From Escherichia coli (lineage in GTDB: Bacteria; Pseudomonadota; Gammaproteobacteria; Enterobacterales; Enterobacteriaceae): DNA of 64,000 nucleotides. Under the pieces are notes generated by a model that made no database searches, was not told the DNA's origin, and saw only the letters and a program-made list of their open reading frames with translations. Positions 3,037 through 40,692 of this stretch are shown here, piece by piece. Where the stretch lies: assembly GCF_001677475.2 (NCBI RefSeq), contig NZ_CP015229.1; one strand, 5' to 3'. A program made the translations under genes and the position numbers. Numbering within the stretch: position 1 is the first letter of the stretch; every line of letters starts with the position of its first letter.

Positions 3037-3357
<321 letters not shown>

Positions 3358-3433: not shown

Positions 3434-4714
3434 TTGTTTGACCGTTATGATGCTGGTGAGCAGGCGGTACTGGTACACATCTATTTTACGCAAGACAAAG
3501 ATATGGAAGACCTCCAGGAGTTTGAATCTCTGGTCTCTTCCGCCGGTGTCGAAGCATTGCAGGTGATTACCGGTAGCCGTAAAGCGCCGCACCCAAAGTA
3601 TTTTGTAGGTGAAGGTAAAGCAGTTGAAATTGCGGAAGCTGTCAAAGCGACGGGTGCTTCGGTCGTTCTTTTTGACCATGCCCTGAGCCCGGCGCAAGAG
3701 CGTAACCTGGAGCGTTTGTGCGAGTGTCGTGTTATCGACCGCACCGGCCTTATTTTAGATATTTTCGCCCAACGTGCGCGTACCCATGAGGGTAAGTTGC
3801 AGGTTGAGCTGGCGCAGCTGCGCCATCTGGCTACGCGCCTGGTGCGTGGCTGGACCCACCTTGAAAGACAGAAAGGCGGGATAGGTTTGCGTGGTCCGGG
3901 TGAAACCCAGCTCGAAACCGACCGTCGTTTGTTGCGTAATCGCATCGTGCAGATACAGTCGCGCCTGGAAAGAGTTGAAAAGCAGCGTGAGCAGGGGCGG
4001 CAATCGCGTATCAAAGCCGACGTTCCTACTGTTTCGCTGGTGGGATATACCAACGCCGGTAAATCTACCCTTTTCAATCGCATCACCGAAGCGCGGGTCT
4101 ACGCGGCAGACCAGTTGTTTGCCACCCTCGACCCGACGTTGCGGCGTATTGACGTTGCAGATGTCGGTGAAACCGTGTTGGCAGATACCGTAGGGTTTAT
4201 TCGCCACCTGCCGCACGATCTGGTGGCAGCATTTAAAGCCACGTTACAAGAGACGCGGCAAGCCACATTACTGCTGCATGTCATTGATGCGGCGGATGTG
4301 CGTGTACAAGAAAACATCGAAGCGGTGAATACGGTTCTTGAAGAGATCGACGCTCACGAGATCCCAACCCTGCTGGTGATGAACAAGATCGATATGCTGG
4401 AAGATTTCGAACCACGTATTGATCGGGACGAAGAGAACAAACCGATCCGTGTCTGGCTTTCCGCACAGACCGGAGCGGGGATACCACAGCTTTTTCAGGC
4501 TTTGACGGAGCGGCTTTCCGGCGAGGTGGCGCAGCATACATTGCGTCTGCCACCGCAGGAAGGGCGTCTGAGAAGTCGTTTTTATCAGCTTCAGGCAATA
4601 GAAAAAGAGTGGATGGAGGAGGACGGCAGCGTAAGTCTGCAAGTTCGTATGCCGATCGTTGACTGGCGTCGCCTCTGTAAACAAGAACCGGCGTTGATCG
4701 ATTACCTGATCTAA
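3434..4714 (+). CDS. hflX: GTPase HflX
   Basis: 426-aa ORF with [10 protein letters not shown]1 motif; apparent TTG start preceded by GAGGG. Confidence 0.93.
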
Positions 4715-7445: not shown

Positions 7446-8747
<1,302 letters not shown>

Positions 8748-27744: not shown

Positions 27745-27949
27745 AGATACCTCCTCAACGGCTGACTTTGTGTGCTCTCCTCTGTGATGCTCTTCTGATT
27801 TAATTTTAATCAATGATAAAGAAGTTGATGGTGACCATTTCTGATGCAGTTGTTCAAAAAAACACCATGATGAAGTGTGATGAACTTCAAATCAGCGTGT
27901 TAGTACGATTTGGTGAAGGATGAGATTTATTTGTCGGCTGGCCTTGAGT

Positions 27950-30375: not shown

Positions 30376-30645
30376 TGTATCGTTGCCTGTTTAATGTTTT
30401 TATAAATATCTCAGCTGAATGTTTACAGAATAAAGAATCGATATTAATAAAAATAAGTTTGTTTTCTGAAGTAGTGAAAATAGCGGATGGTGAAAGATAT
30501 TAATATCAAAAATCGCTCATTGTGGATATAACGATGCAGCAGGGAGGGGGGATATGATTGACAACGCGTTGGTAAGCGAGGTTCGATAACTCAAGCTTCT
30601 TTAAAAACGCCATAACCTCAATTATAGCGTTTTTATTTAAAATAA

Positions 30646-31923
30646 TTAGTGGGTAGCTAACTGTACTTGTGGTTCTTCATCTTTAACTTTGATAAGCGTC
30701 CACAACGCAATAGCACCAATAATGTCAAAGAAAGCCAGGGCAATAAAGAACGGCGCGAAGCCGATAATGTGAACGAATGCCCCGATGAACAGGTTGAAAA
30801 TCAACTGACCGCTCCACGCACAGGCTCCTGCCATACCCACTGCGGTAGCTACTTCGTCCTTTTTGAACAGATCGCCACCCAGAGTTGCTGCTACAGTAGA
30901 AAGACATTGATGCGAGAACGCGCCAATACTAATCAGTAATACGGCAATGTAGGGATTTTCGACAATACTCACCAGACCAATCGTCATCATAATGACGGCT
31001 GCAATAGTGAAGGTAATTCTTCGTGAGTTAATTAAACTCACGCCGCGATCGTGGAAGAACTTCGCGACAAAACCACTGGCTAAACAGCCGAGATCGCCCA
31101 GCAGGAAAGGCAGCCAGACGAACATGGCAATTTCTTTCAGGCTAAAATGCAGCGTTTCGACGAAGAAAATCGGCACCCAGAAGTTAATGGTTCCCCATGC
31201 CGGGTCTGCGAGAAAACGCGCGATGCCAATCCCCCAGAAATTACGTTGGCTGAGGATATGCTTGATTGACGTTTTTTCTTTCTTATCTGTTTTAAGATGC
31301 TGTTCTTGCCCTGATTCAATATAGTGGCGCTCTTCATCAGAAAGGCGTTTGGCATCTTTCGGATCTTTATAACAAAAGAACCAAAATAAAGCCGCGAGCA
31401 AAGCAAGGCTACCTGAAACAATAAACGCAAATTGCCAGCTATGAAACATAATGCACCAGGCAATCAACGGTGGAGCAAGCATCGCGCCGAGTGAGGTGCC
31501 CATATTGAAAACACCTGTCGCCACGCCACGCTCTTTTGCCGGAAACCATGTTGATGCGGTTTTTACACCTGCCGGAATTGCCGACGCTTCGCTGAAACCC
31601 ATCAGGGCGCGCATAAATGCCAGACCTGACCATGTTCCGGTTAGTGCATGGCCCATTGTCGCCAGGCCCCAAATTGCGGCACATATCGCAAAACTTAACT
31701 TCAGACCTACGGTATCAATAAAGAAGCCCATTACCGGTTGCCCTAATGTATAGGCCAACTGGAATGCACTGACAATCCATGAATATTGTTCTTTGGTTAT
31801 TCCGGTTGTCTCCATAATCGTTGGAGCCGCAATACCTAACGCCGTTCTGTCCAGATAATTGATTACAGTGATAAAGCATACGAGGGCAATCATATGCCAT
31901 CGATAATTCTTTATTTTATTCAT
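30646..31923 (-). CDS. MFS transporter, anion:cation symporter (ACS) type (hexuronate/galactonate/tartrate-permease-like)
   Basis: 425 aa, about 12 hydrophobic segments, N-terminal INYLDRTALGIAAP motif; AAGG SD 7 nt upstream. Confidence 0.75.
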   Translation of the reverse strand: MNKIKNYRWHMIALVCFITVINYLDRTALGIAAPTIMETTGITKEQYSWIVSAFQLAYTLGQPVMGFFIDTVGLKLSFAICAAIWGLATMGHALTGTWSGLAFMRALMGFSEASAIPAGVKTASTWFPAKERGVATGVFNMGTSLGAMLAPPLIAWCIMFHSWQFAFIVSGSLALLAALFWFFCYKDPKDAKRLSDEERHYIESGQEQHLKTDKKEKTSIKHILSQRNFWGIGIARFLADPAWGTINFWVPIFFVETLHFSLKEIAMFVWLPFLLGDLGCLASGFVAKFFHDRGVSLINSRRITFTIAAVIMMTIGLVSIVENPYIAVLLISIGAFSHQCLSTVAATLGGDLFKKDEVATAVGMAGACAWSGQLIFNLFIGAFVHIIGFAPFFIALAFFDIIGAIALWTLIKVKDEEPQVQLATH

Positions 31924-32015
31924 TTTTAAACCTTTTAATTATATTAATAAACCCTGGTTGTTGGTATTTCCATGTAATAGGCAATAAAAATCAGGTACAG
32001 AGAAAATATTGAAAA

Positions 32016-34088
32016 TTATTGTGTGTAAATGTCTCCCTTTAAAAAGTCTGGCCAGTTTTTTTCAAAGTAAATACCGTTAATACACGGTTGCATACGTAAA
32101 GACTTTACTTCGGTAATAAAAGAACCTTGCGAATATTGAATTGTTAATTTGTGATTTTTATCTTCAGCGAGTTCAGAGCGAAAACGCCATTCTTCTTTTA
32201 CGCCGCGACGAGTTTGTGGTAGGCATTTGCCTTGTGGATCAATAACCATCCGCGCCCCACGACTGCCGCCACCAGCATCAATATAATGCGTTAATTGTGT
32301 TAATACCGCGGCAGAAGTCAGCGCCATATGCCGCCACATAAACAGCTCGGAAACTTCACCCACATGTTTGATTGCCAATCCATGCCGTTGGACAAATTCG
32401 TTCAATAGCAGGGCATCGCGAGTGGCGCGTCGGACTTTATCGGCATGGCAAATAAATCCCGCATAGTCAGACATTCGTGCCTGAATTTTTTCTCTCACAA
32501 CCGACAACGGCATCCCGGTCCCGTTATCGTGCGCCTGAGTAATGATCTCTCTTATAGAAGCCAGTGCCGGAGCTGCCAGCTGTGCTATATCTCCATCAAT
32601 ATTCCGCTTTTGCGTGCAACCAATAAAACGTGCCAGACGCACGGCAAAAACCTGCCCGGCATTCAATGCCGCACCACCAGGGCGAGTGACGCCGTGTGTG
32701 CCAGCAACTTCCCCCACTGCAAAACAACCGGGCAGAGATGTTTGTCCCCAGATATCCACTTCAATGCCGCCATTCATATGCTGATTATTCATGGCAAACT
32801 GCAATGGCTGCGTGGTGAGATCGTAACCGTGCATCTTATACAGCGAGATAGACAGCGGATTCATTCGTTGCAGTCGTTCGATGGGCGATGGCGCCAGGGC
32901 GTCGTTATTTTCCAGATACGCGCGAACGTCGTCGTCCAGTCGTTCTAATGAGAATGGCAGGTCACCCGGCACAGGTTCAGGATTGCGATTGAAATCCATA
33001 AATACCTGACGCCCTGATTGCTGCTCTTGCGCCACCGCCATATCTAACAAGCTGGAGCCAAAATCCATTACCCGCGTGGCGTGGAACGGCCACTGATAGC
33101 CTTTACGGAAGATGTTTGAAGCCAGCTCCTGGGTGGTGCGATAGTAATCTGCGAGGAAGTTATACTCGTTGCCCTCGGCATCCACGGAATAGATATATGG
33201 GATCACTTGTACATAGGTGCCGGACAAATTCCACGGAAACGTGCTGCGCGGCGTGCCTATACCAAACTGGCTTTCGGTCAGATTAGTTAGTGTCAGGCCT
33301 TCCTCCAGCGCCAGCCCCAGCGAGCCAAAACATTTGTGTGGGTACACACTGTCGCGATAAAGCTCGCCCGGCCCGCCTGTTGCCAGTACCACATTGGGCG
33401 CAGTCACAATTGCCAGCCCCCACGGGTTATGGGCGCGGGAACCGGTTGCGAGGATAGCCCCGGCCACACGATCTTCGCCGTTTTCACCGCGTTGATGCAG
33501 CAGTTTAATCACCGTTGCACTGGTCAACAGTGGGATGGCGAGGCGCTGCACTTCTTCGAGCAATACTTTCACCATCAGACGAGAAGTGCGCGGCCCACAG
33601 GAGGTTGCGCGTCCGGCTTCGTCATGGTCGGTCTGATAACGGAGAATTGCACCATAGCGATCTTCCGGTAATTCCAGACCGAGATATTGCAGCCCGCCAA
33701 GGGTATGTAGGGAACCGACCGCTTCGACATACGCCGTGTCGTGATCCATCGCACCGCCGCTCGCCAGTGCTTCAGCAAGTTTTGCGAAGTTATCGCCGTT
33801 GCCCGCCGTTGCGGCGGTAAACAGCGTCTGTTTATCGGAACCGGAGCAGGCCGATGTTCCCATGTATAACCCGGCGGTGGCGATTAGCACATTTTGCTGG
33901 CGACGTTTCAGTTCAACCGCCGCACGTAATCCTGCCGCGCCGCTACCAACGACCAGAGCATCTGTTTGCCAGAGCGGGTAATCAACACCGTCCACCGTGA
34001 CAATTGACGTTGGCTCTGCTGACACAAAACCCTTCGGGAAAGTGACGTGCGTCAGCGCATCGAGGATGGCGTCATCAGTCTGGCTCAT
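32016..34088 (-). CDS. FAD-dependent oxidoreductase, fumarate-reductase/succinate-dehydrogenase flavoprotein-like, with extra C-terminal region
   Basis: 690 aa; N-terminal dinucleotide fold VVGSGAAGLRAAVEL; start overlaps upstream gene stop (ATGA). Confidence 0.7.
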   Translation of the reverse strand: MSQTDDAILDALTHVTFPKGFVSAEPTSIVTVDGVDYPLWQTDALVVGSGAAGLRAAVELKRRQQNVLIATAGLYMGTSACSGSDKQTLFTAATAGNGDNFAKLAEALASGGAMDHDTAYVEAVGSLHTLGGLQYLGLELPEDRYGAILRYQTDHDEAGRATSCGPRTSRLMVKVLLEEVQRLAIPLLTSATVIKLLHQRGENGEDRVAGAILATGSRAHNPWGLAIVTAPNVVLATGGPGELYRDSVYPHKCFGSLGLALEEGLTLTNLTESQFGIGTPRSTFPWNLSGTYVQVIPYIYSVDAEGNEYNFLADYYRTTQELASNIFRKGYQWPFHATRVMDFGSSLLDMAVAQEQQSGRQVFMDFNRNPEPVPGDLPFSLERLDDDVRAYLENNDALAPSPIERLQRMNPLSISLYKMHGYDLTTQPLQFAMNNQHMNGGIEVDIWGQTSLPGCFAVGEVAGTHGVTRPGGAALNAGQVFAVRLARFIGCTQKRNIDGDIAQLAAPALASIREIITQAHDNGTGMPLSVVREKIQARMSDYAGFICHADKVRRATRDALLLNEFVQRHGLAIKHVGEVSELFMWRHMALTSAAVLTQLTHYIDAGGGSRGARMVIDPQGKCLPQTRRGVKEEWRFRSELAEDKNHKLTIQYSQGSFITEVKSLRMQPCINGIYFEKNWPDFLKGDIYTQ

Positions 34089-35626
34089 GCGTCCTCCATT
34101 GGCGTAAACAGGCTACTTTCCATCAGGCGCGGCTGGTTGATAATTGGACGGAAAGCCATGAACGGCAGAATGTCGCGGTCAATCTCCACGCCCGGCGCGA
34201 TTTCAATTAATTCAACGCCTTCTGCCGTTAACTGAAACACCGCGCGTTCAGTGATATACAACACTTCCTGACCGCTGTGCTGTGCGTAGGCGGCGCTAAA
34301 AGTGATTTTTTCCACCTGAGTAACCAGTTTAGGGATTTGACCTGACTGGGCGATATGCAAGCCATCTGGCGTTACATCAATCTTGCTGCCTTTGGCGTCG
34401 AACGTGCCGCAGAACACCACCTTACGGGCGTTTTGCGCAATTTCGAGAAATCCGCCGGGGCCAATCAGATTGCCATTGAGATGGGAGACGTTGACGTTAC
34501 CGTACTGATCCATCTCTCCCATGCCGAGGAAGGTGATATCGATCCCTCCGCCACTGTAGAACTCAAATTGATCGAGTGATGGAATAATGGCATCGGCGTT
34601 GCGGGCGCAGCCGAAAAACGCATCATCCAGCATCATACCGTTATGCACGCCTTGCTCGACGCTCAGCCATAAACTTTGGTAAGGCACGCCTTCGCGCAGC
34701 GCTACTCCTGGAATGCCGCCGGGAATACCAAAGCCAAAGTTGGTTGAAGCGCCAGCTACCAGTTCGCGTGCTGCCCGACGGGCAATCAGGCGACGTACCG
34801 GATGACTAACCAGTTCAATAGCGTCGTTAGAACTCAGACGGCGATGTTGGCCGCTGATGGTCAGGTCGTAACCGCCAAGATAGGTTTGTGGCTGTTCGCG
34901 GTGTTCAACGATGCCATCAACCAGAATGCCCGGTAATTTGACTCGGCGTGGTTCAATCGCGCCAGCTTCCAGCACATCGCGTACCTGTACAAACACTTTG
35001 CCGCCGCTGTTGTGTGCTGCCAGCGCCATGGAATAGCTATCCATATCAATCGCTTCTTCTTCAAGGCTGACGTTGCCCCGAGGATCGGCATAAGTGCCAC
35101 GCAAAATCGCGTAATCGACTTTGAAAGGGCGATAACGAAGTTTGGTTTCACCGTCGATTTCAATCAGTTCTACCAGGTCGTCGGTAGTGCATTCATTCGA
35201 CTTACCGCCGCCATTGCGTGGATCAACAAACGATCCCAGCCCAACGTGGGTAAAAAGCCCCGGACGTCCGGCGCCGATCTCCCGTAGCAGTGCCTGAATC
35301 ACGCCACCAGGAAAACAATAGGCTTCAATCGCGTTATTTTTTACCAGCGCCTGCATTTTGGGTGACCAGGTAAAGTGTCCGGCAATAATGCGTTTGAGCA
35401 TTTCAGCATGAGCGAAGCGGTTCGTGCCTTTGCAGTCGCGATCGCCAATGCCCAGCGAGTGGATTAATGTCAGATCGCGCGGGTGTCCGGTTTGCAGGAA
35501 GCGCGCTTCAATGGCTGCCAGAATATGGTCGGCTTCCACCATGCCGCCGCCGTTACCGCTAATGGCAATGGTTGCGCCATCCTGAATTTGCGCCGCCAGT
35601 GCCTCGGCGGTTGTTATCTTACGCAT
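34085..35626 (-). CDS. CoA-transferase, family I-like (YdiF/propionate-CoA-transferase-like)
   Basis: 513 aa; overall resemblance to two-domain family I CoA-transferases; assignment by eye, needs HMM confirmation. Confidence 0.6.
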   Translation of the reverse strand: MRKITTAEALAAQIQDGATIAISGNGGGMVEADHILAAIEARFLQTGHPRDLTLIHSLGIGDRDCKGTNRFAHAEMLKRIIAGHFTWSPKMQALVKNNAIEAYCFPGGVIQALLREIGAGRPGLFTHVGLGSFVDPRNGGGKSNECTTDDLVELIEIDGETKLRYRPFKVDYAILRGTYADPRGNVSLEEEAIDMDSYSMALAAHNSGGKVFVQVRDVLEAGAIEPRRVKLPGILVDGIVEHREQPQTYLGGYDLTISGQHRRLSSNDAIELVSHPVRRLIARRAARELVAGASTNFGFGIPGGIPGVALREGVPYQSLWLSVEQGVHNGMMLDDAFFGCARNADAIIPSLDQFEFYSGGGIDITFLGMGEMDQYGNVNVSHLNGNLIGPGGFLEIAQNARKVVFCGTFDAKGSKIDVTPDGLHIAQSGQIPKLVTQVEKITFSAAYAQHSGQEVLYITERAVFQLTAEGVELIEIAPGVEIDRDILPFMAFRPIINQPRLMESSLFTPMEDA

Positions 35627-35635
35627 ACAATTTCC

Positions 35636-36412
35636 TTAGTGATTATGGAAGCTCACGCTACTTTTTTCGGCAAATGCCTGCGTCGCCTGCTGGCAATCCT
35701 GAGTGGCGGACATTAATCCAGCCAGTAACTGGTGTGGGTATTCAGCGTGTTTATTTTCCAGTGCCAGAATCAGCTGCTTAATATGCGCCAGTGCCACCGG
35801 ACCACATTTTTCCAGCTGCGCTAACTGGTTCGCCATCCAGCTTTCCACCTGTTCTTTTTCTACTACTTCATCAATTAAATTCGCCGCCTGGGCTTCATGC
35901 GCCGTCAGACGTTTACCTAGCATCAGCATCTGGCGACCGACCACTGGGCCGACCTGATTAATCACGCGTTCAATGCCCATCCAGCCAGGCACCATGCCGA
36001 GCATGACTTCCGGGTTAGAAAATTTCGCGCTGGGGCGAGCGATTCGAATATCGCAGCACAAGGCAAGTTCAATACCGCCGCCGATGGTATGACCGTTGAG
36101 ATTCGCAACCGTTAATTGCGGTAAATTGCGCAGGCGATTAAAAACGTCATTGCCGCGTTTAATCCATTTTCTGCCCATATCTAATGGCGAATAGGCCGAC
36201 CACGATTTAATATCACCGCCCGCACAAAAGAATTTATCGCCGATTGCCGTTAATTCGACTAATCGTAATGTGGTGTCGTTTTCAATTTCATTTAAATAAT
36301 GGTCGAGAGATTCAATCATCTCTTCGTTAATAGCATGACATTTCTCTTCACGGTTCAACGTCAGGCGGCAGGAAGCCGCCGCTCTGCTGAACAGAACGGG
36401 TTGGTCACTCAT
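35636..36412 (-). CDS. enoyl-CoA hydratase/isomerase (crotonase fold)
   Basis: 258 aa; crotonase signatures FCAGGDIKSW and GGGIELALCCD, plus PE motif (SNPEVMLGMVPG). Confidence 0.8.
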   Translation of the reverse strand: MSDQPVLFSRAAASCRLTLNREEKCHAINEEMIESLDHYLNEIENDTTLRLVELTAIGDKFFCAGGDIKSWSAYSPLDMGRKWIKRGNDVFNRLRNLPQLTVANLNGHTIGGGIELALCCDIRIARPSAKFSNPEVMLGMVPGWMGIERVINQVGPVVGRQMLMLGKRLTAHEAQAANLIDEVVEKEQVESWMANQLAQLEKCGPVALAHIKQLILALENKHAEYPHQLLAGLMSATQDCQQATQAFAEKSSVSFHNH

Positions 36413-36421
36413 GATTATTCC

Positions 36422-37264
36422 TTAGCAATAATTCGCGATGCGATCGACGCTAATATCCAGCGTGTTGTTAATATCTTTCTGCCACCAGTACGGTGAGAAT
36501 ATTTCCAGTTCAATAGCGCCATTAAATCCGGCGTTTTCAACCAGTCGACGAATTGACGGAATATTTATCACGCCATCTCCCGGCATTCCCCGGTCATTGA
36601 CCAGATCGGTGGTCGGCACTAACCAGTCGGAAACATGAAACGCGAGAATACGTTTTCCGGCGCGCAGGAGCTGGCTGGCCAGATCCGGATCCCACCAGAC
36701 ATGGTAAACATCCACAGCCACGCCGAGGCCAAATTCGCCATCGGGATCGAGTTCATCACACCAGTCCAGCGCCTGGCGTAACGTGCACAGGCAAGAGCGA
36801 TCGGCGGCGGTCATTGGGTGCAGTGGCTCCAGCGCAATCGGCACGCCAACGTCTTTCGAATGTGGCAGTAACTGGCGTATCCCTTGTTTCACCTGTTCCC
36901 GTGCTTCATACAGATCTTTTGTGCCCTGCGGTAACCCGCCAACCACCTGCATATAACAGGCGGCGTTCAGCACCGCTGCGTCGTCCAGCGCCCGGCGGTT
37001 ATCATCAATTGCCAGTTTGCGTTCCGCCAGCGTCGGCGCGGTGTAGTAGGTGCTACGGCATAAACCGGAAACGCGCATGTTATTGACGGCAAGCTGGCGG
37101 GCGATCTGCTGAAGATCTTCACCCTGCAACTCTCTGCGCCAGGGGGCGATCGCACCGATACCGCGTGCGGCACAGGCATCAATAATGGCGGGTAGCGGCG
37201 TTTTATAGCCCAGTGTTGCGGTATTGATACTGAATAAATCCGGGCGTTGTAACAGATCTCTCAT
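36422..37264 (-). CDS. xylose-isomerase-like TIM-barrel protein (sugar phosphate isomerase/epimerase or dehydratase family)
   Basis: 280 aa; resemblance to AP-endonuclease-2/xylose-isomerase-like TIM barrels by eye; needs HMM confirmation. Confidence 0.55.
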   Translation of the reverse strand: MRDLLQRPDLFSINTATLGYKTPLPAIIDACAARGIGAIAPWRRELQGEDLQQIARQLAVNNMRVSGLCRSTYYTAPTLAERKLAIDDNRRALDDAAVLNAACYMQVVGGLPQGTKDLYEAREQVKQGIRQLLPHSKDVGVPIALEPLHPMTAADRSCLCTLRQALDWCDELDPDGEFGLGVAVDVYHVWWDPDLASQLLRAGKRILAFHVSDWLVPTTDLVNDRGMPGDGVINIPSIRRLVENAGFNGAIELEIFSPYWWQKDINNTLDISVDRIANYC

Positions 37265-37273
37265 GATTCAGCC

Positions 37274-38065
37274 TCAGAAGCGCGGCATACTTAAGCCGCC
37301 GTCGATGGCGACCGCCTGACCACAGGTGTAAATCAGTTTACCTTCCGCCATCGCGCGGACGGTGGAGGCAATATCAGCCGGATAACCCCAACGTCCCCAC
37401 GGCACCAGACCTTTGGCAATCAGTTCGTCGTAATAAGCCGTTGCTGGAATAGTCATATCGGTTTTGATGAGACCAGGGCGCACTTCATAGACGCCAATTT
37501 GTTCGTTGCAAAGGCGAGCAGCAAACAGACGAGCAGCGGCAGAAACGGCGGTTTTGGCAATTGTGTATTCGCCGCGATTCATCGCCAGCATGATGGCGTT
37601 GATGGAACTGACAAAAATAATTGAGCGGTGCGGGAATTCTGTTTCTGGTTTTGGCTGTGCGAGCAGACGTTTACTGAATGCCTGTGCAAGGAAGAACGGT
37701 GCGCGGGTGTTAATGGCAATATTTTGGTCGAAGCTGTCTGGTTCCAGGTCGAGAAGGTCACCGCGTTTTTTCACTGAAATGCCTGCGTTGTTGAGCAGGC
37801 AGTCCAGACGTCCCCACTGGTTTTGCGCTGCGTCGAGCATCTCTTCATGCAGGGAGAGATCGCCAACATCGGCAGGGAAGCAAATCACTTCCACGCCTTC
37901 CGCCAGACATTCTTGTTGTGTGACATGTAATTTTTCAACGCTATCGGCATCCGGACGATCATTAATCAGCAGATTAAATCCGCCACGCGCAAGCTCCAGC
38001 GCACAGCCCTTTCCAATACCACGAGCGGCTCCGGTAATCACGGCAACAGGACGAGTGGATTTCAT
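37274..38065 (-). CDS. short-chain dehydrogenase/reductase (SDR)
   Basis: 263 aa; TGAARGIGKG cofactor motif, NNAG, catalytic Ser and YxxxK (YTIAK). Confidence 0.85.
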   Translation of the reverse strand: MKSTRPVAVITGAARGIGKGCALELARGGFNLLINDRPDADSVEKLHVTQQECLAEGVEVICFPADVGDLSLHEEMLDAAQNQWGRLDCLLNNAGISVKKRGDLLDLEPDSFDQNIAINTRAPFFLAQAFSKRLLAQPKPETEFPHRSIIFVSSINAIMLAMNRGEYTIAKTAVSAAARLFAARLCNEQIGVYEVRPGLIKTDMTIPATAYYDELIAKGLVPWGRWGYPADIASTVRAMAEGKLIYTCGQAVAIDGGLSMPRF

Positions 38066-38133
38066 ACAATAGCTCTCTTTTTTTGAATTTTGTTTCCTTA
38101 GTGATGATTAGCTTGCGACTGGAGGATAAAAAG

Positions 38134-38155
38134 ATCAACCATCTAGTTGGTTGAT
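38134..38155. promoter_or_regulatory. candidate TetR-family operator (perfect 8-6-8 palindrome)
   Basis: ATCAACCA-tctagt-TGGTTGAT in the 212-bp divergent intergenic region between the SDR operon and the TetR gene. Confidence 0.45.
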
Positions 38156-38277
38156 ATGCGATGACGATCACAGGACATTTGATAACCTGATGAAAGTACA
38201 AGTTTTTGCCCTTTTTTCTGAAGCTGAAATCAAATCAGGTTATGATAGTCACCACGAAGAGGTCGTGGGGAAGCGTT

Positions 38278-38925
38278 ATGTATATTGATACCAGCAACGT
38301 ACAGAGCCTGAAGGAAAAGCTGCTGTTATGCGCGGTTAATGAATTTGCCGAATATGGTTATGAAGGGGCCAGGGTCGATAATATTGTTAAGTCTGCGGGG
38401 TGTAGTAAACAGACGGTTTATCACCACTTTGGTAATAAAGAAAATTTATTTATTGAAGTACTGGAATATACCTGGAACGATATTCGAAAAAAAGAAAAGG
38501 CCCTTGATTTCTCAGATCTTCCGCCACAAAAAGCCATTGAGAAAATTATTGATTTTACATGGGATTATTATATTGCTAATCCCTGGTTTTTAAAAATTGT
38601 GCATAGTGAAAATCAAAGTAAAGGTGTGCATTATGCAAAATCACAGCGTCTCTTAGAAATTAACCATGCGCACTTGCAGTTAATGGAATCCTTATTGGAG
38701 GAAGGGAAGAAACACAATATTTTTAAGCCAGATATCGACCCATTGCAGGTGAATATTAATATTGCTGCGCTTGGGGGATATTATTTGATCAACCAGCATA
38801 CGCTTGGCCTGGTTTATCACATCAGTATGGTTTCACCCCAGGCACTGGAAGCCAGACGTAAGGTCATCAAAGAGACGCTCCTTAGCTGGCTTTTGGTTGA
38901 CCCCTCATCTACCGCGCACGAATAA
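38278..38925 (+). CDS. TetR/AcrR-family transcriptional regulator
   Basis: 215 aa from ATG 38278 (GGGGAAG SD upstream); N-terminal [31 protein letters not shown]; track ORF is N-extended. Confidence 0.8.
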
Positions 38926-39547
38926 AACTGCCATCCGGCTGACGGGTAAACAGGACCTGTTGATTATTCCCCGTATCAATGGTTAAGCCCGTCACCACGC
39001 CGCTGGCGTTCTGGCGGATTTTCACCATCTGCCCGTTTTGCAAATTACTCAGCGGCTTATCCGCGCCTTCTACCTGCGCCATTGCATAGACATCGGTAGC
39101 GGGCAGTCCGTGGTCGCGGAACAGCTGCGCCATCGTTTTACCGGGTTCGACACGGTAAGAGCGCCATTGATTATCAATTCCGCTATCTGGCTGGAATGGT
39201 TGCGTTTGGGTGGTTTGCGGCTGCTCTTCTGGCTGGCCTTCCTGTATTGGTTCTGGAGCGACCGGGGCCACCTGATCAGGATCATTTTGTGGCGTAACTA
39301 GCTGCGCCCGCAGCTGTTCTTCTGTCGGCAGTTGTGATTGCGACTGAATATCTAACTGCGCTTCACGCGTCACCACCGGCGCGTTGGGCGTATCATCAGA
39401 TGGAAGCAGAAATCCGACCACCAATACAATGGCGGCAATAATGATCCCCCGACGATGCATCGGCGGCAGCGGGTCCATGAAGCGAAAATTGTCCGGCGCG
39501 TGCCAGACTTTCTCCAGGGTTGGTTTTAGTTCAAAGCGCCCGGGCAT
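38909..39547 (-). CDS. ytfB: OapA/LysM-domain cell-division protein YtfB
   Basis: 212 aa from [18 protein letters not shown], strong AGGAGG SD; Pro/Gln-rich linker and C-terminal OapA-like domain. Confidence 0.85.
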
Positions 39548-39764
39548 GGTTTCCTCCTGCTCCGCGTCTTGTTCCTCAATCATAGCCTATGAATAAGCTA
39601 ACGCTATGATGTCCGTGGTAAACCCGCCTTTATTATATTCATACGGGATATTGCTATTGTTTCTTTTTCCCCGGGATTTGTCATCATTCCCGCGACAAAG
39701 TTTTACCCAAAGAAGTGTGGCTGATATGCTGCCCGCTACTTTATACCCTAAGAAAGGAAATACG

Positions 39765-40385
39765 ATGACCACCCCAACTTTTGACACCATCGAAGCGCAA
39801 GCAAGCTACGGCATTGGTTTGCAGGTAGGGCAACAACTGAGTGAATCTGGCCTGGAAGGGCTGCTGCCAGAAGCACTGGTTGCAGGCATTGCTGATGCGC
39901 TGGAAGGCAAACATCCGGCTGTTCCGGTTGATGTGGTGCACCGCGCGCTGCGTGAAATCCACGAACGCGCCGATGCCGTTCGTCGTCAGCGTTTCCAGGC
40001 GATGGCTGCTGAAGGTGTGAAATACCTGGAAGAAAACGCCAAAAAAGAAGGTGTAAATAGCACCGAATCTGGCCTGCAATTCCGCGTGATCAACCAGGGT
40101 GAAGGCGCAATTCCGGCACGTACCGACCGCGTTCGTGTTCATTACACCGGAAAACTGATCGACGGCACCGTGTTTGACAGCTCCGTCGCTCGCGGCGAGC
40201 CAGCTGAATTCCCGGTTAACGGCGTGATCCCTGGCTGGATTGAAGCACTGACTCTGATGCCGGTAGGTTCTAAATGGGAACTGACTATCCCGCAGGAACT
40301 GGCATATGGCGAGCGTGGCGCAGGCGCGTCCATCCCTCCGTTCAGCACCCTGGTGTTTGAAGTCGAACTGCTGGAAATCCTCTAA
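39765..40385 (+). CDS. fklB: FKBP-type peptidyl-prolyl cis-trans isomerase
   Basis: 206 aa from [20 protein letters not shown] domain at C-terminus. Confidence 0.9.
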
Positions 40386-40692
40386 GCAGCGCATTCTGTT
40401 CCCCTCGAGCCAGAGGGGAGCAGGCATTCAGCAATAAACCCTTCAGTTTGCCAAACGGCGCTATTTTGTGTTGCAAAGACCCCGTAAGCGTGTATTTTTG
40501 TGAGCTGTTTCGCGTTATCACCGTGATATGACACTCACTTTAAACATAAAATTAACATTAGATCTAAATCTTAGTATTCATCCCGCGTATTGTTACCTAA
40601 TATCGATGAGTCCCGATACAGATTCGTCGTATCATAGACTGACTAAAGGCCGTAGAGCCTGAACAACACAGACAGGTACAGGAAGAAAAAAC

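Follow-up and report, generated by a model that had tools for sequence, protein, structure and literature searches.

In Tn10, the tet regulator gene is divergent, palindromic tetO operators lie in the spacer, and TetR consists of an N-terminal helix-turn-helix (HTH) and a helical ligand domain. Because a pair of operators there lies across both of the divergent promoters, TetR also regulates its own gene. A TetR-family regulator may also act together with an activator, and uidA is under the TetR-family protein UidR plus CRP. The same logic of relief from a repressor combined with cAMP-CRP is found at lac P1, where LacI acts through lacO1, downstream of the start, and CRP is centred near -61.5. 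Among TetR-family proteins, FadR of Bacillus and Thermus and mycobacterial KstR2 control CoA-dependent catabolic operons, and RutR, which regulates pyrimidine catabolism in E. coli, binds uracil. The RutR box has the consensus 5'-TTGACCAnnTGGTCAA-3' (PMC2475637).

Here we compare with these systems a locus in a 64-kb stretch of Escherichia DNA (hereafter the window), in which the gene for a TetR-family regulator, called ytfA in PMC6790063 and PMC4287617, is divergent from a six-gene operon. The likeness to Tn10 TetR/tetO lies in the divergent regulator, in the probable palindromic operator within the spacer, and in the N-terminal HTH joined to a helical ligand domain; unlike Tn10, the ytfA spacer has one such operator, at the operon promoter only, plus a CRP site. 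Repressor relief combined with cAMP-CRP is the logic that the proposed control of the operon has in common with lac P1, and CRP would be near -61.5 here as well if the predicted start is right. In contrast to lac, where lacO1 is downstream of the start, the YtfA operator would lie between CRP and the -10 element, overlapping the -35, and the repressor is of the TetR family. Among characterised proteins, RutR comes closest in structure to the YtfA model (Foldseek TM 0.72-0.75, about 21% identity), and the RutR box and the YtfA palindrome share an ACCA/TGGT half-site core. However, ACCA and TGGT are separated by N6 in the YtfA palindrome and by N2 in the RutR box (4 bp further apart), and at 36.6 bits YtfA is a long way short of the cut-off of 368 for the RutR family. 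FadR and KstR2 proteins are among the best sequence matches of YtfA, over residues 14-155 (3vpr, 5gp9, 3whb and 4w97), and the operon, like their targets, encodes CoA-dependent functions, a CoA-transferase and an enoyl-CoA hydratase. The NCBIfam FadR match of YtfA has an E-value of 2.4e-12, yet reaches 47 bits against a family cut-off of 200; the fold search with YtfA places FadR and KstR2 proteins no higher than 26th to 41st, and the YtfA C-terminal domain is TetR_C_29, not the YsiA-like TetR_C_4.

In the literature searched we found no publication on the operon, on a YtfA target or on a YtfA operator, and YtfA itself appears there only in lists; nor did the search bring up any measurement of binding, footprints, transcription starts or expression for YtfA or for the promoter. 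The design that we describe, a repressor and an activator at one operon promoter, is ordinary, but apparently undescribed for YtfA.

Materials and Methods

The spacer was aligned across 15 orthologous loci, the window included. Six are from Escherichia (the window, Nissle, E69, E. whittamii, E. albertii and SCPM-O-B-8794), four are from Klebsiella spallanzanii, Salmonella enterica, Lelliottia and Leminorella, and the remaining five are more distant cassettes with TetR proteins 56-66% identical. A scan of a genome collection gave only nine loci, and it was exact-protein look-ups that supplied the majority of the orthologous loci. Entomohabitans (L006), in which the spacer is doubled by an insertion, and ETEC H10407 (L020) were handled outside the 15-locus set. 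A Halomonas relative (L008, 35% identity) has another gene context and no comparable palindrome, and was uninformative. Because a simple consensus scan gave no promoter anywhere in the spacer, promoters were sought with our own scan, which uses a simple sigma-70 position weight matrix (PWM) of approximate textbook frequencies.

Results

The window is Escherichia DNA, and 2.6 kb around the spacer are 96.8% identical to E. coli Nissle 1917. Its genes run in the order yjfZ, six minus-strand genes, spacer, the plus-strand TetR-family gene, ytfB, fklB and cycA. The spacer of 212 bp (38066-38277) lies between the ATG of the SDR gene (38065, minus strand) and the ATG of the TetR gene (38278), and both starts agree with the RefSeq annotation of Nissle. 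The six-gene target operon (30646-38065, minus strand), as assigned from ORFs, RefSeq names and NCBIfam matches, begins with the SDR gene (37274-38065), followed in order of transcription by genes for a TIM-barrel 'sugar phosphate isomerase/epimerase' (36422-37264), an enoyl-CoA hydratase (35636-36412), a fused CoA-transferase (34085-35626) and a 690-aa FAD-binding oxidoreductase, a fumarate-reductase-like flavoprotein (32016-34088), and ends with an ACS-family MFS anion transporter (30646-31923). The NCBIfam and cluster names of these products are generic. The TIM-barrel protein has two close solved homologues, 3qc0 and 3ju2 (E about 1e-86), both of unknown function, whereas for the 690-aa FAD protein no related structure was found at E < 1e-10.

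Every locus compared has the regulator divergent from this set of genes in unchanged order, as far as can be followed in the short contig L017, which ends inside the cluster. Because the flanking genes are wholly different in Leminorella and in the distant cassettes, the regulator and the operon can be regarded, from their gene contexts, as a mobile seven-gene unit. Unrelated contexts of this kind are those in Leminorella and in several metagenomic contigs (L012 and L013-L017). Within E. coli the locus is held by 3139 of 5426 complete genomes, and operon and ytfA together form a presence/absence polymorphism, present in about 58% (3139-3143 of 5426). In E. coli K-12 the operon and spacer are missing together with the 5' part of ytfA, of which the 5'-truncated pseudogene b4205 is left over; the deletion runs from the MFS gene into ytfA (K-12 locus L019, 3424-4096). 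Along 30600-40500 the divergence from Nissle (L001) is a mosaic of about 2% to 14% per 500 bp that peaks around 33500-34500, and the spacer differs by only 0.5%, which suggests that divergent alleles of the cassette have recombined.

YtfA (38278-38925, plus strand; 215 aa) is assigned to the TetR family from its Pfam matches, AlphaFold2 (AF2) model and RefSeq annotation. Residues 19-61 match TetR_N (6.7e-14), the remainder of the assignment comes from TetR_C_29 (4.6e-30), and the AF2 model, at a pLDDT of 92, is all-helical with 12 helices, so that both features of the family, an N-terminal HTH (PF00440) and a helical C-terminal domain of TetR fold, are present. All top PDB matches in a fold search are TetR-family proteins, the best being the uncharacterised 3npi and the uracil-binding RutR, and matches by sequence in the PDB include the acyl-CoA sensors FadR and KstR2. 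Across the YtfA orthologues the HTH region is nearly invariant.

The earlier note had singled out a palindrome of two 8-nt arms about a 6-nt centre as an operator for the neighbouring TetR protein, and the sequence is exactly where that note placed it: ATCAACCA (38134-38141), TCTAGT and TGGTTGAT (38148-38155). It can also be read as 11+11 with one central T:T mismatch. The centres of the half-sites are 11 bp apart, which places both on one face of the helix, and an 11-bp spacing of half-site cores suits a single TetR dimer. Symmetry alone is not convincing evidence for this palindrome, or for the second inverted repeat of the spacer discussed below. When the spacer was shuffled by dinucleotides, 4.5% of the shuffles contained a perfect inverted repeat like the first (arms of 8 nt or more, no more than 12 nt apart) and 1.2% contained one like the second (arms of 10 nt or more, no more than 60 nt apart). 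Seed matches in the whole window number 36 for the first kind and 17 for the second, against 16 and 4 expected, where overlapping registers of one repeat are counted separately. We therefore relied on conservation to separate the two repeats.

By this measure the palindrome stands out. It is the best-conserved 22-bp window of the spacer among the 15 loci, with a mean pairwise identity of 0.88 as against 0.53 for the whole spacer, and within it the identity is 0.97 for AACCA and 1.00 for TGGTT, with 0.72 for the central 6 bp. Conservation reaches further outwards in the left arm (0.96) than in the right (0.81), which in the distant cassettes has decayed on its outer side to TGGTTAA or TGGTTTA. 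The palindrome is present in every cassette, including those with a TetR protein of 56-66% identity in other genomic contexts. A 30-mer centred on it occurs in 3143 of 5426 complete E. coli genomes, one copy each, a number close to the 3139 that hold the locus. Elsewhere in the 64-kb window no copy was found with up to 3 mismatches allowed, and in the E. coli genomes, which were searched for near-identical copies only, no second one was found. Between the window and the ETEC H10407 spacer 33 of 212 positions differ, none of them in the palindrome arms or in the half-sites of the CRP site described below (hypergeometric P = 0.009).

These observations agree with the assignment made in the earlier note: the palindrome travels with the cassette, bears the strongest conservation footprint of the spacer and overlaps the predicted operon promoter, and it is probably a conserved binding site for the neighbouring YtfA. 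Its length of 22 bp is within the 15-30 bp or so of a palindromic TetR operator at a regulated promoter, and the near-invariant HTH of the orthologues is in line with the invariant core of the site. From conservation and linkage to the cassette we infer that YtfA binds 38134-38155 through the core AACCA-N6-TGGTT. The contig L017 carries a second palindrome, ACCAACCATTCGGTTGGTTTGT, at 4242-4263, which starts about 46 bp closer to the SDR gene than the main operator does. It covers -6 to +16 of the predicted operon promoter, over the predicted start, where a copy would be expected if a repressor acts on this promoter, and offers independent support for both the promoter position and a repressor role.

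The predicted operon promoter consists of a -35 element TTGATC in the outer part of the left operator arm (38133-38138, minus strand; pairwise identity 0.98) and, 17 bp from it, a weak -10 element CAAGCT (38110-38115, minus strand), both from the PWM scan. In 14 of the 15 loci TTGATC, 17 bp and CAAGCT, CATTTT, CATCTT, CATCGT or TAAGTT are among the top PWM matches at the same aligned position, CAAGCT being the operon -10 in Escherichia and the other four hexamers occurring elsewhere; the fifteenth locus has TTGTTC-17-CATTTT at the position of the operon promoter. The -35, the 17-bp spacing and the -10 thereby keep their geometry in all 15 loci, and this, the one sigma-70-like promoter of the operon that is conserved in position, is overlapped by the palindrome. 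The predicted start near 38103 would give a 5' UTR of about 38 nt, and the operator (38134-38155) would span -31 to -52. CAAGCT is a very weak -10, with 2 of 6 consensus positions (A2 and T6) and a PWM score of 6.7 bits for the promoter, and such a weak element suits an activator-dependent promoter. A GATC site for Dam methylation (38133-38136) lies within the predicted -35 and the left arm, and is kept in 14 of 15 loci.

A CRP site missed in the earlier note, TGCGATGACGATCACA, begins 1 bp to the right of the palindrome (38157-38172, centre 38164.5) and, read as TGCGA-TGACGA-TCACA, agrees with TGTGA-N6-TCACA in 9 of 10 bases. Conservation is seen in its half-sites (0.84 and 0.80) but not in the spacer between them (0.46). 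Matches to the CRP consensus, as expected of a class-I promoter, are found in the window and throughout the 15 loci, where they score 8-10 of 10 at a fixed 19-20 bp from the operator centre; relative to the start predicted from the weak -10, the CRP centre is at -61.5 (-60.5 in five of the 15 loci). CRP sites of class-I promoters are centred near -61.5, the classical position, or near -71.5, -82.5 or -92.5. A class-II arrangement, with CRP at -41.5, was considered and rejected, as no acceptable -10 was seen by eye at the required position. Occupancy of the site by CRP is on record in a related strain: by ChIP-seq in ETEC H10407, Haycocks et al. assigned the site TGTGATCACTATCGCA to ETEC_4557/ytfA (PMC4287617), and this is the orthologous CRP site of the H10407 spacer (4941093-4941108). 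The published peak centre, 4940903, is about 190 bp from the motif in the RefSeq record, and with this offset as a caveat we assign the peak to the ytfA spacer through the motif and the genes listed (PMC4287617). The only other match to the CRP core at up to 1 mismatch in the window is at 27876-27891, in the yjfY/rpsF intergenic region; there, TGTGATGAACTTCAAA is identical to a CRP ChIP-seq site in H10407 (PMC4287617, Table 1).

On the other side of the spacer a separate promoter is predicted for ytfA, with a -10 element TATGAT (38241-38246, plus strand; pairwise identity 0.82), a weak -35 element CTGAAG from the PWM scan (38218-38223, plus strand) and a start near 38253. The -10, as TATGAT, TAAGAT, TATAGT or TATAAT, is found at the aligned position in 15 of 15 loci and is among the PWM top matches in 13. 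Relative to this predicted ytfA start, the operator centre lies at about -108. In Entomohabitans teleogrylli (L006, about 7720-7930) the ytfA promoter is set apart from the operator/CRP module by some 210 bp of inserted G+C-rich DNA, so that the two modules are separable.

The second inverted repeat to which the earlier note had drawn attention is likewise where it was described, with 10-bp arms ATAACCTGAT (38182-38191) and ATCAGGTTAT (38234-38243) and 42 nt between them, but its reading as a functional pair does not hold up in the relatives. Complementarity is 10/10 in three Escherichia sequences only and 4-8/10 in the other 12 of the 15 loci; the decayed pairs include other Escherichia, the changes are one-sided, and not one compensatory change was seen among the 15 loci. 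The pairwise identity of the left arm is 0.60. The last 3 nt of the right arm are the start of the conserved TATGAT, the ytfA -10 hexamer, and only because of this overlap is the arm partly conserved. Judged by the alignment, the second repeat is probably fortuitous, a product of chance.

Discussion

We propose a model for control of the operon that we consider likely to be correct, in which a CRP-activated operon promoter carries the YtfA operator, ytfA has a separate promoter of its own, and the second repeat has no function as a pair. The spacer would hold two separate promoters, back to back. That of the operon would be a weak class-I CRP-dependent sigma-70 promoter, to which cAMP-CRP, bound to TGCGATGACGATCACA at -61.5, would recruit RNA polymerase. 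A single YtfA dimer would bind the palindrome between CRP and the -10 element, with the -35 contained in the left arm and the right arm covering the DNA where the C-terminal domain of the polymerase alpha subunit docks beside CRP. As the two arms cover both of these, bound YtfA would be expected to block recognition of the -35 as well as CRP-dependent recruitment. A substrate or intermediate of the pathway is expected to release YtfA, and expression of the operon would call for both the inducer and a lack of glucose. Transcription of ytfA would proceed from its own conserved promoter. Only one part of the dual role proposed in the earlier note, repression by the regulator of both the operon and itself, fares well here: the position of the site fits repression of the operon, and the conserved ytfA promoter is about 108 bp away from it, so that strong autoregulation of ytfA through the palindrome is probably not to be expected.

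The alternative closest to that dual role, which we regard as unlikely, is a shared operator, from which YtfA would repress the operon and ytfA alike, with the palindrome acting either on a distal promoter of ytfA or jointly with the 10-bp repeat. Autoregulation is common in the TetR family, and a plus-strand promoter candidate that uses the right arm as its -35 can be drawn (TTGATA at 38151-38156, 17 bp, GACATT at 38174-38179); its PWM score is 10.1 bits in the window, and the Lelliottia version, TTGATT-17-TATTAT, reaches 13.1 bits. It is this distal candidate that leaves some doubt over an overlap of the operator with the regulator's own promoter as in Tn10 tetR/tetA, which is otherwise not seen. 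The arms of the second repeat, for their part, contain AACC/GGTT and so resemble the operator core. The distal promoter is not conserved, however, and is confined to some taxa: Salmonella and Klebsiella have TTGGTT in the right arm, and the distant cassettes have TTAA or TTTA there; the ytfA promoter that is conserved stands apart from the operator centre, by some 210 bp more in Entomohabitans; and the decay of the second repeat without compensation speaks against a paired operator. The conservation of the palindrome could also have a cause other than YtfA, if the sequence were kept only for the -35 or for another factor and YtfA acted elsewhere or not at all. The better conservation of the arm that bears the -35 (0.96, against 0.81 for the right arm) is what such a reading would lead one to expect, and the footprint may partly reflect the -35. 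The TGGTT of the right arm, outside any promoter hexamer, is nevertheless invariant in the 15 loci, the full second palindrome of L017 is not at a -35 position, and in the 64-kb window and the E. coli genomes the palindrome occurs only with the ytfA cassette, all of which make this explanation very improbable.

The least probable of the readings weighed here takes the palindrome as RNA: in the operon leader it would fold into a hairpin with the U-run CUUUUUAUCC behind it, and would attenuate or terminate transcripts begun upstream of it. The consensus scan does report a terminator-like site on the minus strand (38155 to 38134; 8 pairs, a 6-nt loop and then CTTTTT), and there is partial conservation (0.66) of the A-tract on the left side of the palindrome. 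Against this, only 3 of the 8 pairs of the stem are G-C, and the 76-nt fold has an energy of -13.3 kcal/mol with z = -1.9; changes in the outer stem are one-sided in other loci, with no compensation, and leave a stem of 5-6 pairs in the distant cassettes. Neither the G+C-rich stem nor the pairing kept in relatives that mark an intrinsic terminator or attenuator is found. Moreover, the PWM scan gave no conserved minus-strand promoter upstream of the palindrome, the hairpin has no Rfam match, and a CRP site directly upstream of the palindrome fits a promoter rather than a leader. Our model of an operator within a CRP-activated promoter accommodates the fixed spacing of the CRP site, the palindrome and the promoter elements across the 15 loci.

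As to what would release YtfA from this operator, the earlier note had suggested an acyl-CoA. An acyl-CoA may be the inducer, in keeping with the CoA-transferase and the enoyl-CoA hydratase of the operon, but the matches of YtfA point in different directions: those by sequence favour FadR and KstR2, and those by fold favour the uncharacterised 3npi and the uracil-binding RutR. More tentatively, and at a strength well below that of the promoter model, the operator and CRP module may be the switch of an uncharacterised, horizontally mobile CoA-dependent pathway for an organic acid, possibly one derived from the gut or the host. If this is true, screens for the inducer with operator-reporter fusions would lead to the substrate and thereby to a new, strain-variable metabolic trait; a promoter fusion of the 90-bp module could be used for the inducer screen, and hence for finding the pathway substrate.

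For YtfA, the analysis assigns a likely operator, promoter and activator site to the regulator, and the same assignment serves a six-gene accessory operon common in E. coli, Salmonella and relatives. It also corrects the first reading of the spacer, in that the second repeat is not worth pursuing and autoregulation is not to be assumed. The distant versions of the cassette add a flavodoxin gene after the MFS gene, which suggests that the 690-aa flavoprotein may have an electron-transfer partner in the flavodoxin.
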